NCBI RefSeq assembly: GCF_006345805.1
Contig: NW_021829610.1
Span: 1-32,149 of the forward strand
Direction of reading: 5' to 3'
Length of the DNA: 32,149 bases
DNA from: Octopus sinensis
Taxonomy: Eukaryota
The notes beneath the pieces were generated by a model, which was given only the letters and a program-made list of their open reading frames with translations, was not told the DNA's origin and did not search any database. A program made the translations under genes and the position numbers. How positions within the stretch are numbered: position 1 is the stretch's first letter; each line of letters starts with the position of its first letter. Shown piece after piece: positions 2,887 through 30,747 of the stretch.

Positions 2887-3150
2887 ATTATATATATATA
2901 TAGATATATAATATCTGACTCTGTCCGACTGTCTCGGCACAGGGGCCACTCGGAATCCAACCTTCTCTGTGAACAGGAACTGATCTTGTCAATTCCTTCC
3001 TTTGCGCCCTATGGGTTCACTCACTACCTTACCATATACCTCCGACTATTGTACCCCTGTCAGGAGCTTGTGTACTGCTGAAAGATCTTAGGGTCACTGA
3101 AGCACACAAACCACCGTACAGGAAGGAGTGGACGTTGTGGTGGATGTTGT

Positions 3151-3359
3151 TAGCACGTCGGGCGAAATGCTTAGCGGTATTTCGTCTGCCGTTACGTTGT
3201 GAGTTCAAATTCCGCCGAGGTCGACTTTGCCTCTCATCCTTTCGGGGTCGATAAATTAAGTACCAGTTAAGCACTGGGGTCGATATAATCGACTTAATAC
3301 CTATGTCAACCCATGTTTTTCCCCTCTATGTTCAGCCCCTTGTGGGTAATAAAGAAATA
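3151..3359 (+). mobile_element. SINE family B, long-tail type, 5'-truncated
   Basis: Matches other B copies; 9-bp TSD ggatgttgt at 3142-3150 and 3360-3368. Confidence 0.9.
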
Positions 3360-3739
3360 GGATGTTGTAATATAGTAGATAATTTTCTTTTCTTTGGCCT
3401 GACAACAGAATATATTATACTTCTTGGTTAGTTGCCTAGAGGATTCCAACTCGAATATTAGAAAAGATTCATCAAATGAGCGAATATATTTTATTAGGAA
3501 TTATTACCAAGATGCACATTCACACTCACACTCATATATGCACGCACACACAAAACACATCCTCATACACGCGCGCACACTCACACACGCATAACCACAT
3601 ACGCACCCGCGCACACTCACACACGCATAAGTACACACGCATACGCGTGAATAGAACTGCAACATTATATGGTTTTGTTTTCTTGTCTTAATTACTATTT
3701 AACTGTATACAAAATATGTTTGTATTTGTGGCTTGTATA

Positions 3740-3784: not shown

Positions 3785-3990
3785 TGTTGATTCGTTAGCT
3801 ACTGCACGCATTTTTTTTCTCTCCTTCTTTCTGTGTTTTTCTCTCTCTGTGTATCTTTCTGTTGAAGAGCGTAGGCTCGAAACGTTAAAGACTTGTTTTA
3901 TTTATATTTCCTGAGCGCCATACAATACAATTGTTCGTTTGTTTTCCACCGCCTTCGTCTTTTGTTTATTTTCATAAAGCTTCCCGTTAT
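3785..3990 (+). mobile_element. Penelope-like pseudo-LTR remnant between (TA)n tracts
   Basis: Homologous to 7245-7425 (opposite strand); carries a hammerhead-like core and runs into (TA)n, as known for PLE terminal repeats. Confidence 0.6.
3854..3891 (+). ncRNA. Minimal type I hammerhead-like ribozyme motif (variant core CUGUUGA)
   Basis: TCTTT-CTGTTGA-A-GAGC(GTAG)GCTC-GAAAC-GT-T-AAAGA: stem I TCTTT/AAAGA, stem II GAGC/GCTC, palindromic stem III AACGTT. Activity untested. Confidence 0.6.
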
Positions 3991-4504
3991 ATATATATAT
4001 ATATATAGATATATATAATATATTATATATATAATACAATACTGAGAGGAGGAGAGAGAGAAAGAGAGAGGGGAAAACGTGTGTGGACAGCTCGTCTATA
4101 TTGTATAGAATTCCACACAAATATAAAATTTTAATGATAGAAGAATTTTTCGTAATACAACATAAAACTAAAGCAAATATATAGAATACGCATCTATCCT
4201 AAAACTACTAACCAAGGATTTCAGAATCCAGTTGCAAAAATCTACAGATATCGATAATAGCGAGTATAAGCGTTGTTCTTACGCAAGCGAATAATACTGC
4301 ACCTCCCAAATATTTGTAGCATTGATGATGGTTCTGAAATAAGGGTTTTCAAAAGGAATTTATGGCTAAATATTGAAAAATACGTAAAAATTAATCTAAA
4401 TAATATAATACAAGTAGAACGAAAATATATTTTCAAAATATGGAGTACACAACTACACCCCCAAATATTTATATGCGTGTATATATATGTTTGATGATGG
4501 ATAC

Positions 4505-5749: not shown

Positions 5750-6166
5750 CCGCTTTCGCATAAACTGATGTAATTTTTTTTCACTTACGTTGTCTTGAAG
5801 CTGTGCTGTAACTTCTGCCTCATAAACGACACCTGATCAAGTGTCCATGTTTCAGGTCTCGAGTGGTGCAGCTAGGAATGAGCTCTTGGTGATGCTTACC
5901 GGTGATAATATTGGTCATGTTCTGGCAGCAATGGTATGATATTTTAATCGAGTGTCAGTTAAATACCTTCCTGCATTTACATTTTATTGGGAAATGTCTA
6001 TCTAAAATCGACAGGAAAGTTTGCCTACGTTAATTGTAACATTCAATGTCAAGAGGGTAGCAAACCATATTATTTTCCTAGGTCTATTTATAGAATTATT
6101 CTTATGAGTTAGATTCAGAGTTGAAGGATTGTGATATATTTTGTAGTTGAAATTACACTTAGCTAG
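5750..6166 (-). mobile_element. Penelope-like retroelement ORF relic (RT-to-GIY-YIG linker and start of GIY-YIG)
   Basis: Translation across frameshifts: NRPRKIIWF..NVTINVGK / FLSILDRHFPIKCKCRKVFN*HSIKISYHCCQNMTNII / SGVVYEAEVT..NVSEK / NYISLCES. Matches the PLE pattern RNIIWFNPP..TNIGK.FL.LIDKHFP..IKISYSCMPNM..VVY.A.V..YIGL.E. Confidence 0.8.
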
Positions 6167-10463: not shown

Positions 10464-10869
10464 GGCGTTGGAGTGGCTGTGTGGTAAGTAGCTTGCTCAC
10501 GAACCACATGGTTCCGGGTGCCGGGTTCAGTCCCGCTGCGTGGCACCTTGGGCAAGTGTCTTTTACTATAGCCTTGGGCCGACCAAAGCCTTGTGAGTGG
10601 ATTTGGTAGACGGAAACTGAAAGAAGCCCGTCGTGTATATGTATATGTATATGTATGTGTAAATGTGTTTATCCCCCCAAAATCGCTTGACAACCGATGC
10701 TGGTGTGTTTACGTCCCCGTAACTTAGCGGTTCGGCAAAAGAGACCGATAGAATAAGTACTAGGCTTACGAAGAATAAGCCCCGGGGTCGATTTGCTCGA
10801 CTAAAAAGGTGGTGCTCCAGCATGGCCATAGTCAAATGACTGAAACAAGTAAAAGAGTAAGGAGTAAGA
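10464..10869 (+). mobile_element. SINE family A, near full length, with long TSD
   Basis: Exact 20-bp direct repeat atatcatttgccagtacata at 10444-10463 and 10870-10889 (the last 1-2 bases may belong to the SINE head). Confidence 0.93.
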
Positions 10870-19474: not shown

Positions 19475-19885
19475 AAGGTGATGAGCTGGCAGAATCATTA
19501 GCACGCCGGGCGAAATGCTTAGCGGTATTTTATCTGTCGTTACGCCCTGAGTTCAAATTCCGCCGAGGTCGACTTTGCCTTTCATCCTTTCGGGGTCGAT
19601 AAAATAAGTACCAGTTACGCACTGGGGTCGATGTAATAGACTTAATACCTATGTCTGTCCTTGTTTGTCCCCTTTGTGTTTAGCCCCTTATGGGTAATAA
19701 AGAAATAGGTATTTTATCTGTCTTTACGTTCTGAGTTCAAATTCCGCCTAGGTTGCCTTTCATCATTTCGGGGTCGATAAAATAAATACCAGTTATGCAC
19801 TGGAGTAGATATAATCGACTTAATCCGTTTCTCTGTCCTTATTTGTCCCCTCTGTGTGTAGCCCCTTGTGGACTGTAAAGAAATA
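19475..19885 (+). mobile_element. SINE family B head-to-tail dimer (full unit plus headless unit)
   Basis: Junction aaagaaata|ggtattt at about 19707-19709. Confidence 0.92.
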
Positions 19886-21348: not shown

Positions 21349-21372
21349 TGGGGTAAAACTGCTAGATATACT

Positions 21373-21674
21373 TATTTCTTTATTATCCACAAGGAGCTCA
21401 ACATAGAGGGGACAAACAAGGACAGACATAGGTATTAAGTCGATTACATCGACCCCAGTGCGTAACTGGTACTTAAATTATCGACCCCGAAAGGATGAAA
21501 GGCAAAGTCGACCTCGGTGGAATTTGAACTCACAACGTAACGCAGACGAAATACCTATTTCTTTATTACCCACAAGGGGCTAAACACAGAGGGGACAAAC
21601 AAGGACAGACATAGGTATTAAGACGATTACATCGACCCCAATGCGTAACTGGTACTTAATTTATCGACCCCGAA
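21373..21674 (-). mobile_element. SINE family B head-to-tail dimer, 5'-truncated, single TSD
   Basis: Same junction as the 19.7-kb dimer at 21554-21556; 9-bp direct repeat agatatact at 21364-21372 and 21675-21683 brackets both units. Confidence 0.92.
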
Positions 21675-22419: not shown

Positions 22420-22795
22420 TGCTTCTTCTTCTTCTTCTTCTTCTTCTTCTTCTTCTTCCTTCTCTTCTCTTCTTCTTCTTCTTCTTCTTCTTCTACTTCT
22501 TCTTTTTCTCTTCTTTTCTTCTTCTCCTTCTTCTTCTTCTTCTTCTTCTTCATCATCATCTTCCTCTTCTTCTCCTTCTTCTTCTTCTTCTTCTTCATCA
22601 CATTCTTCCTCTTCTTCTCCTTCTTCTTCTTCTTCTTCTCCTCCTCCTTCTTCTTCTTCTTCATCACATTCTTCTGCTTCTTCTTTTTCTTCTTCTTCTC
22701 TTTCTTCTTCTTCTTCTTCTTCTTCTTCTTCTTCTTCTTCTTCTTCTTCTTCATCATCATATTCTTCATCATCATCTTCTTCATATTCTTCTACT
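22420..22795. repeat. About 375-bp (TTC)n-derived polypyrimidine/polypurine tract
   Basis: Direct reading; source of the poly-K and poly-E ORFs. Confidence 0.95.
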
Positions 22796-23352
22796 CCTTC
22801 TGTGTACCTCATTTTCCCGCATCTTGTTTATGGATGTTATCTCTTTCATTATGAAGGTAGAAGTAAAACAGATACCAAAAAAAAAAAAATGTTAATCTCT
22901 TTCCGCCTTTGTTAATCTCCAAATGTTTTAGTTTTAAATCAGAAATACGTAATAAATGCTTGGTTTGCCACAAGCCAATGTTTTTATTGACTTTGCTTAC
23001 TGACTAAGGCGATACAAGTTATTAATTACCAATAAATGGACTGATTTTCATCCGATTCATAATCATTTTCACTACTCCTATGTTTCTTTCAGCTACAAAC
23101 TCCCATCTGTCCTTCTCTGTACACACAAACACATTAAACAACACACAGACACACACAGAAGCACGCACACAGACACAACACACACACGAGCATGCATTCA
23201 GGCATGTAGGCGTGCATTCTCACACACGGGCACATACACAAATATATATATATATATATATTACATGTTTGTATATGTATTTGCGCCCATAACTAAGCAT
23301 GTCAGTAAATATATATATATATTATATATATATAATATATATATTATATATA

Positions 23353-23385
<33 letters not shown>

Positions 23386-23650
23386 ATATATATATACACA
23401 TATATATATATATATTTATGTATGTATGACTATGGTGTGTGAACTGTGATCTCAACTTACGATAGCATGGAATCAAAGATATATATGTATATATATATAT
23501 ATATATATGTATTTATTAATTTAGACCAAGTTTAAACACCCTGGGCCAGGAATACTAAAACAAAAGATAAGTCCTCCGAAAAAGGAAAAAAATTCTTTCG
23601 TGCAAATCTGACCCTGATACATACGATACAGCTAAGGGTCAGACCCGATT

Positions 23651-24076
23651 CTGATTGGTCAACAAGTTGATGACGTCTAGCTCTGCTAGAATGGACAGGA
23701 TACAAACAGGGGACAGTCATTAGTCAGAATATTGATGACGTCCTTTTCTGCTTGACTAGTCACCTAACAAGTACAGACAGGGGGCAGATCTAATGTAGCA
23801 TAAGTCGTGATTGGGCAGAATCTGGACGGCGTCCGTTCTGCTTGACTAACGAAGCGACTGGTCAAAACAGGAAACCAAACAAGAGGCAGTTATAATGCAG
23901 CGATTGGTCAAAATAATGATGACGTCCGTTCTACTTGACTCACGAAAACTGGTCAAAACAGGAAACAAACACAGAGGCAGTTATAATGCAGCGATTGGTC
24001 AAAATAATGATGACGTCCCGTTCTACTTGACTAAGCCACCTAACGAAACAGATTGGTCAAAACGTTGATGACGTCA
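23651..24076 (+). promoter_or_regulatory. Tandem array of six inverted-CCAAT plus CRE-like modules (putative NF-Y and CREB/ATF enhancer)
   Basis: ATTGG(-like) at 23654, 23719, 23810, 23903, 23994 and 24052, each followed 17 nt from its start by TGACGTC(-like) at 23671, 23736, 23827, 23920, 24011 and 24069; the last is a perfect TGACGTCA. Confidence 0.7.
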
Positions 24077-24107
24077 CGCTACGCTGGATTGACCACCTAA
24101 CAGGCAT

Positions 24108-24191
24108 TATAAAACCGAGCACTTCACAAAAACTCACTAGAACCACCCAGCGAACTTCCACCATGGGTCATCACAATTGCTTAAGGTAAAA
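24108..24191 (+). promoter_or_regulatory. Putative core promoter: TATA box, Inr-like TCACT, Kozak ATG, possible splice donor
   Basis: TATAAAA 24108-24114; CTCACT with A at 24136 (28 nt after the first T of TATA); CCACCATGG with ATG at 24163; AAG|GTAAAA at 24185/24186. Confidence 0.5.
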
Positions 24192-24549
24192 ATGAATTCT
24201 CGCTCTTTCGGAAAACATCAATCTTGTATTGACCGCTTTCCACCACTTTGATCTGTTTTTTGTATTGAATACGTATCGCCACCGTGGGCCACTGCAACGA
24301 ACACTTTGAACATATACTTCAAACTATATATCAACTATACTTGAACTATTATATCAACTATACATGAACTCGAAGATGTCTGACTCCGTTGTGTATATAA
24401 ATGAATTTCTTGTGTTTGACGGCATGAGCTGTCTTTTTTTATATATAACCTTTTTTTTGATAAGGTTCATTTCAGGAACTGAAACATGTTATAATGTATA
24501 TATAAAAATTAAAAATGTATAATACAGCAGCTTTTCGAACTTCATTTTT

Positions 24550-24583
<34 letters not shown>

Positions 24584-24755: not shown

Positions 24756-25001
24756 ATCGGAAAAAAATGCTATGAAAAATGACCGGAAAAATTAAGTACT
24801 CGGGTCGATTTGTTTGACGAAATTCTTCAAAGTGGTATTACAGCATAAACTGAATCAATTAAAATACTAAGATGTGTCGCACCAAGTTTCTAACATCACA
24901 GCAACGGCATGAGACCGTAGCCAGCCTGCGAGAAACATGACTTTAAGAACAAAAGTACTTGAAAACGATTAAATTCTACCACAACACTTTTGATCATATA
25001 T

Positions 25002-25235
25002 TTATTTCTTTATTATCCACAAGGGGCTGAACACAGATGGGACAAACAAAGACGGATATAGGTATTAAGTCGATTACATCGACACCAGTGCGTAACTAGT
25101 ACTTAATTTATCGACCCCGAAAGGATGAAAGGCAAAGTCGACCTCGGCGGAATTTGAACTTAGAACACAGCGGCGGACGAAATACTGCAAAGCATTTCGC
25201 CCGGCGTGCTAACGATTCTGCCAGCTCACCGCCTT
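25002..25235 (-). mobile_element. SINE family B, long-tail type, full length
   Basis: 12-bp TSD ttgatcatatat at 24990-25001 and 25236-25247. Confidence 0.93.
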
Positions 25236-30532: not shown

Positions 30533-30694
30533 AGGTAAGTAGCTTGCTTAACAACCACATGTTTCCAGGTTCAGTTCCACTACGTGGCCCCTCGGGCAAG
30601 TGTCTTCTACTACTGCCTCTGGCCTACCAAAGCCTTGTGAGTGGATTTGGTAGACGGAAAATAAAAGAAGCCCTTCGTATATATGTATATACAT

Positions 30695-30747
<53 letters not shown>

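Follow-up and report, generated by a model that had tools for sequence, protein, structure and literature searches.

A CCAAT-CRE array assigned to the pseudo-LTR of a young Penelope-like retroelement in Octopus sinensis, and use of its splice donor towards host exons

The 32,149-nt stretch of Octopus sinensis DNA analysed here (the window), an entire contig, contains six similar modules, each combining a CCAAT box, read as ATTGG, with a CRE, and followed by a TATA box and a splice donor. What kind of sequence carries such an array, and does it work as a promoter? A sequence-only reading had taken it for an orphan promoter from an LTR, DNA transposon or virus, antisense to a candidate host gene. 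We hold it probable that the stretch is the pseudo-LTR (pLTR) of a Penelope-like element, that array and TATA box serve as the element's own RNA polymerase II promoter, and that the exon behind them is spliced onto host exons elsewhere.

Modules and core motifs in the window

Read from the window letters, the ATTGG-like motifs start at 23654, 23719, 23810, 23903, 23994 and 24052, which gives module-to-module spacings of 65, 91, 93, 91 and 58 nt. The CRE-like motifs start at 23671, 23736, 23827, 23920, 24011 and 24069, so that the ATTGG-to-CRE offset is 17 nt in all six modules. The features are:

23654..23677, + strand: module 1, ATTGG-N12-TGACGTC, from the window letters
23719..23742, + strand: module 2, CCAAT half degenerate (ATTAG), CRE intact
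23810..23833, + strand: module 3, CRE mutated (CGGCGTC) in comparison with other copies
23903..23926, + strand: module 4, within a 91-bp tandem duplication (23830-24034)
23994..24017, + strand: module 5, second unit of the 91-bp duplication
24052..24076, + strand: proximal module 6, with the palindromic TGACGTCA at 24069-24076
24108..24114, + strand: TATA box TATAAAA, 39 nt from the proximal CRE
24134..24185, + strand: predicted first exon, from the Inr-like TCACT to AAG, its 3' end taken from spliced contigs at homologous copies
24186..24191, + strand: splice donor GTAAAA, used in run X3 at other copies

The six modules, their spacings, the invariant offset and the perfect palindrome of the proximal CRE were all found as the sequence-only reading had described them. 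So were the positions of the TATA box, the Inr-like site (TCACT at 24134-24138, its A at 24136), the ATG at 24163 and the donor GT at 24186-24187, as well as the side motifs CTTGACT (four times), CACCTAAC (three times) and CAGGAAAC (twice). The common module consensus holds for the offset in all modules and to the letter in fewer, both motifs being exact in four of the six. GATTGGTCA is exact in four, the exceptions being module 2 (ATTAG) and module 3 (ATTGGGCA), and TGATGACGTC in five, the exception being the CGGCGTC of module 3. This last mutation belongs to the window copy, as the module 3 CRE is intact in 28 of 29 other copies, and ATTAG in module 2 is the state of the whole family. ATTGG-N12-TGACGT occurs four times in the window against 0.02 expected, and at least four occurrences were reached in 0 of 100 shuffles. 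Modules 4 and 5 go back to a single recent 91-bp duplication (92% matches), so the six modules are not independent. Among donor-like sites, the GTAAAA donor scores highest in the 3' regions of both the window and L157, a related copy. The 5' end of the exon before it is predicted, since contigs cannot show a transcription start.

The parent element and its two frames

The stretch with the array is the 3' pLTR of a young Penelope-like retroelement, present in the window as a 5'-truncated copy. This copy spans 23520-24555, between (TA)n tracts, and its parts are:

23479..23516, unstranded: left (TA)n-rich target flank
23520..23558, + strand: last 12 codons and stop of the RT/GIY-YIG ORF2 (FRPSLNTLGQEY, then stop), a peptide that also ends the 781-aa frame of copy L035
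23559..24555, + strand: 3' UTR / pseudo-LTR, its last 590 nt recurring in copy L032
24457..24490, + strand: predicted minimal hammerhead ribozyme variant with a U3-A8 core and a 5-bp helix II, from a pattern search
24555..24583, unstranded: right (TA)n flank of the target, of a kind typical for right ends in the family

Position 23520 is the 5' truncation point of the window copy. The sequence-only reading mentions neither the GIY-YIG ORF remnant at 23520-23558 nor the hammerhead-like core at 24457-24490. About 74 nt near 23581 are missing from the window copy and present in 26 of 29 others. Outside the element, the window carries a 380-nt (CTT)n tract at 22422-22801, 700 nt left of the insertion, and SINE-like repeats (3150-3361, 19498-19709, 21366-21536 and 24996-25166; 105-273, 10490-10658 and 30534-30702), which represent several dispersed families in both orientations.

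A search for copy number and element boundaries, proposed in the sequence-only reading, was run with a 741-nt query on the 2.72-Gb genome. It gave 825 candidates, 40 of which were scored and yielded 42 matches; the full-length ones among these, self excluded, showed 95-97% identity. A 26-mer over the exon-1 ATG and donor occurs 480 times in the genome (control 0), and we put the family at about 480 copies. Against 29 other copies, the window copy shows a median of 1.8% mismatches, and these 29 show 1.6% among themselves; the family is therefore young. Right ends are fixed on (TA)n and left ends are variable, with a tail after the right end in L009, L158 and L161. With about 480 copies and intact parent frames, the promoter is no orphan. 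L016, L017 and L018 share flanks and truncation point and are probably haplotigs or a segmental duplicate, so they are not independent insertions. In L035, 2784-4065 and 8717-10000 are near-identical (99.7%) over 1.28 kb, comprising the pLTR end together with host flank, and go back to either a local duplication or an assembly artefact.

The element reaches 4.85 kb in the longest of 20 fetched 10-kb stretches. Long copies contain two frames, a 479-codon frame with ORF1 (about 465 aa) and ORF2 of 781 codons, the latter with RT, a CX4CXXC linker and GIY-YIG. The ORF2 of L035 matched the profile RVT_1 (E=1.2e-6) at 28.9 bits, slightly below the cut-off of 29.6, and GIY-YIG above the cut-off (E=3.3e-6), with the endonuclease C-terminal; the motifs DKG, GxKF and YLDD were read directly. 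Its linker between RT and endonuclease, CGRPNCGIC, fits the CX2-5CxxC of the Neptune/Nematis clade, and by this linker we class the element as putatively Neptune/Nematis-type. The C-terminal rather than N-terminal endonuclease and the DKG in place of DKA separate it from Naiad. In L032 the last 590 nt of the element are repeated directly ahead of ORF1 as a direct pLTR, and inverted 5' copies were found at L009/L012 and L047. Direct or inverted pLTRs, RT with C-terminal GIY-YIG, 5' truncation and a tail are all marks of Penelope-like elements, whose pLTR organisation is a known trait (PMC8557442). The single ORF of EN+ Penelope-like elements is not seen here, as ORF1 and ORF2 overlap, ORF2 in the -1 frame, in three families. 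Besides the present family (A), these are family B (L149-L156, L162) and family C (L163-L166), further two-ORF Penelope-like families with 64-67% ORF2 identity, in which many copies have intact frames of 780-789 codons. Six N-terminal ORF2 matches of two families lie within about 115 kb at G000:C6:12,731,000-12,846,000, where near-full-length elements appear to be grouped locally.

The hammerhead is a predicted motif, in the pLTR where Penelope-like elements are known to carry one. By pattern search the U3-A8 core was found in eight of the eight regions examined, six of them with a helix II whose 4-5 bp start at the base, and two sister families have equivalent cores with different helix II letters. 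An Rfam search returned no hammerhead match, only (TA)n-driven microRNA matches. A pyrimidine-rich CAG in loop II (L032 4344) is a candidate acceptor.

These features bear on the origin first proposed for the array, the U3 of an LTR retroelement, a DNA transposon or a virus. Multimerised CCAAT and bZIP sites ahead of a TATA box do resemble the enhancers of LTR12/ERV9 (PMC3730095). However, the array follows the RT-GIY-YIG stop codon in every copy that extends far enough; the upstream protein is this one and not gag-pol with integrase, the left end is variable through 5' truncation, and a tail and the hammerhead core are present. We saw neither a frame for an integrase or transposase nor terminal inverted repeats. 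A solo LTR with TG...CA-like ends was rejected because the left end is the truncation point. We give an LTR, transposon or virus hardly any credence as the present state, since the array belongs to the Penelope-like pLTR; capture of an ancestral LTR fragment by the Penelope-like lineage is possible as the origin of the array.

The ORF1/ORF2 overlap carries TTTTTTAG (L032 5823-5831, L035 about 5845-5855), which is conserved in the sister families L149-L166. At 15 of 16 overlap junctions from three families, one with an extra T, ORF1 reads a T6A heptamer in X-XXY-YYZ phase. Of 30 family-A copies, 2 lack the anchor for the comparison, and the exact family-A overlap motif is present in 26 of the 28 that have it. 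The same letters have the form of both a -1 slippery heptamer, in the phase of ORF1, and a T-rich splice acceptor. The -1 frame of ORF2 and its lack of an early ATG in two sister families favour a -1 ribosomal shift. Downstream of the heptamer we found no stimulatory hairpin, the folds ranging from -0.9 to -4.2 kcal/mol, and looking for ORF1 relatives that are longer and fused gave no match, which weighs little. The overlap letters are also the most T-rich acceptor 3' of the donor and share the frame of the exon-1 ATG, which makes splicing past ORF1 a rival to the frameshift. The 3' region of sister family B contains no donor-like site, and no donor-to-overlap junction appeared among the rows listed. 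The overlap would thus be either a -1 frameshift site or a splice acceptor.

Conservation of the array and use of the donor in RNA

We compared 50 related regions with 270 CREs, regions and modules that are related by descent and whose counts are not independent. An ATTGG stands upstream of 216 of the CREs, and for 215 of these the offset was 17; the remaining 54 of the 270 were without an exact ATTGG, the middle G often being lost (ATTAG, ATTCG). Column conservation was anchored on ATTGG alone and covered ten distinct modules from 26 windows, two of the ten being near-duplicates shifted by an indel. Mean identity was 0.90 for the CRE, 0.56 for the spacer and 0.36-0.38 for the flanks. Statistics anchored on the CRE were set aside as circular for the CRE and as including non-homologous rows.

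The subfamily copies L157, L158 and L161 (92-94% protein identity) have a different module number and a largely different proximal spacer, and they keep ATTGG-12-TGACGTCA and the AAG/GTAAAA donor (the slash marks the exon end). The TATA box is kept in L157 and L158, 44-45 nt from the proximal CRE, and mutated in L161. L159 has one degenerate module left, and in L160, which is closer than the sister families, the array is absent. It is also absent from the 3' regions of the sister families (64-67% protein identity); family C has CACGTGAC/CCAAT repeats in its place. The array is therefore not required for Penelope-like elements in general, and motifs that are kept in subfamilies and absent in sister families point to a lineage-specific promoter design under apparent selection. 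The ATG at 24163, earlier taken for a Kozak start, is without counterpart in the diverged subfamily copies, and in the mapped chimeras described below the long host ORF does not start at it.

Could the array be the product of neutral unequal tandem duplication in a 3' UTR, with an offset that merely reflects common descent? The recent duplicate of modules 4 and 5 would fit, as would a module number that varies between subfamilies and sister families that do without the array. Such a history is at odds with a CRE conserved far above the flanks when ATTGG is the sole anchor, and with a proximal module that keeps motifs and offset around a largely different spacer in L157, L158 and L161. We consider it very unlikely. 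The conservation is biased towards the motifs, and the offset is more than a trace of tandem duplication, which the sequence-only reading had named as the finding that would count against it.

The transcript data are assembled contigs, from which neither start site nor level can be read. No run is recorded as RNA; X3 was treated as such on the ground that its junctions coincide with splice sites. In this run six contigs in five rows exit the element at L032 4055-4061. Four of the five rows map to single places in the genome, and all of these resolve to the 4054/4055 (AAG/GT) donor; in each of the four partners the foreign sequence starts right behind a pyrimidine-rich YAG, chance-matching letters counted. 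The fifth row, of two contigs, gave 0 genome matches at two lengths, probably as its letters mix both contigs. Upstream of three of the four partners lies a same-strand pLTR, for C24 at a distance of 2.5 kb (here a solo end of 606 nt that has two modules), for C4 at 4.0 kb and for C7 at 7.6 kb, against a chance of about 7e-4 per partner. We thus observed use of the donor in cis at three loci, all at copies other than that of the window and in a single run (X3) of one study. The proposed AAG/GTAAAA junction is a working donor in RNA at these copies.

A core-2/I-branching glycosyltransferase ORF of 452 aa, which has an ATG of its own, lies in the C7 partner exon. This ORF is single-exon (L083 166-1521, minus strand; G000:C7), and the pLTR exon joins it as a 5' exon. 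The C22 partner has no pLTR copy within 280 kb upstream, a region with two N gaps. One gap in the assembly (G000:C22:15165281), with (TA)n at its borders, is found 3.8 kb ahead of the exon; the copy may be hidden in this gap or be a polymorphic insertion. This host exon (L051 1356-1514, minus strand) encodes a 53-aa peptide that had no match in a Pfam search and may be the beginning of a small methyltransferase, which it resembles. The C22 case had raised the idea that a leader exon is trans-spliced, which is disfavoured with three of four partners having a copy in cis.

In the DNA run X15 the loose ends were 5' truncation junctions, none of them behind the donor; run X6 showed nothing at the donor, and contigs of run X8 end at it. 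Among the rows listed in X1, X2 and X3, none splices the donor to the body of the element itself, and unspliced contigs cross the pLTR-body junction. With regard to a retained intron near the 5' end, a trait of Penelope-like elements, the donor is present in genomic copies, and its use was seen towards host exons. The antisense host gene proposed for the window was not found, as 0 of 150 six-frame segments (150 of 173 candidates) reached the Pfam cut-off, a search that short exons could escape.

How would the array work? NF-Y and an ATF/CREB-type bZIP factor would bind each module at fixed spacing, as the motifs and the established NF-Y/bZIP cooperation suggest (PMC3730095, PMC7793273). The array would then activate the TATA/Inr core, with transcription starting near the Inr. 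In a partial tandem, the 3' end of the upstream copy would drive the full-length copy downstream, as in D. virilis Penelope. Solo 3' ends, which are far more numerous than full copies, would fire outward and have their first exon of about 50 nt spliced to the next host acceptor. A response to cAMP is a guess from the CRE motif.

The same chimeras could come from exonisation, in which host transcripts start upstream, enter the Penelope-like 3' end and use the donor while the array initiates nothing. Read-through across repeats is common, the contigs cannot show starts, and those of X3 extend upstream of the TATA box over the array. On the other side, no loose end enters the exon from upstream within 3950-4054 in X3, so no upstream host exon is joined there, and the order of TATA box, proximal CRE, CCAAT and donor is kept despite changed intervening sequence. 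In addition, the pLTR is a promoter in the only element tested (PMC2377424). We therefore regard exonisation without initiation as unlikely. Donor use together with motif-biased conservation supports the mobile-element Pol II promoter cassette with splice donor that had been suggested.

Under the promoter reading, element copies may switch on neighbouring genes; the chimeras come from other copies, and none is tied to the window copy, which is best read as an ordinary truncated relic, a solo end with four intact modules. A wider picture is possible, and we hold it tentatively. It is that of an amplifying Penelope-like lineage with a spacing-locked, U3-like NF-Y/CRE promoter, whose hundreds of solo outward-firing copies would supply tissue- or signal-responsive alternative first exons to host genes, and whose RT-endonuclease, encoded in the second frame, would be reached either through a -1 shift at U-UUU-UUA or through splicing of the same first exon to this site.

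Comparison with known systems

The class of element is known, and its likely promoter, similar to an LTR U3, is unusual. By 2008 it had been stated that pLTRs act as promoters with a possible effect on host exons, and Penelope-like promoters have been dissected in one fly element only (PMC2377424). TATA/Inr-like motifs were noted in rotifer pLTRs (PMC3846280), and Penelope-like families have been annotated in an octopus genome (PMC13282606). The available parts of PMC11167929 and bioRxiv 10.64898/2026.07.22.740005 hold nothing on such arrays. Within a literature coverage that lacks most subscription journals and Repbase, no paper turned up that describes CCAAT-CRE arrays in pLTRs, capture of host exons by a pLTR with support from RNA, ribosomal frameshifting or a two-ORF strategy in EN+ Penelope elements, or the present octopus family. 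In comparison with the fly element, the family offers a very different, upstream design of TATA box and enhancer, and RNA evidence of host-exon capture at defined loci. With hundreds of near-identical copies and natural variation in module number, the effect of transposon promoters on host genes becomes testable in this animal.

Compared with Neptune/Nematis-type EN+ elements, the octopus element has two overlapping frames (ORF1 about 465 aa, ORF2 781 aa). We take the type with a frameshift-separated ORF1, in the figure legend cited next, to be EN-minus Athena. Canonical EN+ Penelope-like elements have a single ORF (Craig et al. 2021, PMC8557442), and the legend to Fig. 1 of that paper allows a frameshift-separated ORF1 for some Penelope-like type.

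Like metazoan minimal hammerheads of Penelope-like elements, the predicted variant has a U3-A8 core, a helix II, a near-absent helix III and a location in the pLTR, whereas its helix II has 4-5 bp and theirs 7-8 (Cervera and De la Pena 2014, PMC4209133).

The array shares with LTR12/ERV9 and with NF-Y/bZIP composites the repeated CCAAT and a bZIP site at a fixed distance 5' of it (PMC3730095, PMC7793273). Since distances are measured differently, in PMC7793273 from the centre to the middle A, the gap of 12 nt in the octopus array is not directly comparable with the published 10-12 bp. Unlike LTR12/ERV9, the octopus array is not in an LTR, and its putative NF-Y and CREB sites are known by motif and spacing.

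A further known system is D. virilis Penelope. Its promoter lies in the pLTR and is TATA-less, internal and LINE-like, with a donor 46 nt after the start; the drive of downstream genes or exons was stated, and in partial tandems a downstream copy is transcribed from the 3' end of the one ahead of it (Schostak et al. 2008, PMC2377424). The octopus element likewise combines a probable pLTR promoter with a splice donor about 50 nt past the start, which is here a predicted one. In contrast to the fly element, its promoter would be upstream, TATA-containing and built on a multimerised CCAAT-CRE array, like an LTR U3, and host-exon capture, predicted for D. virilis Penelope, was seen here in RNA contigs.
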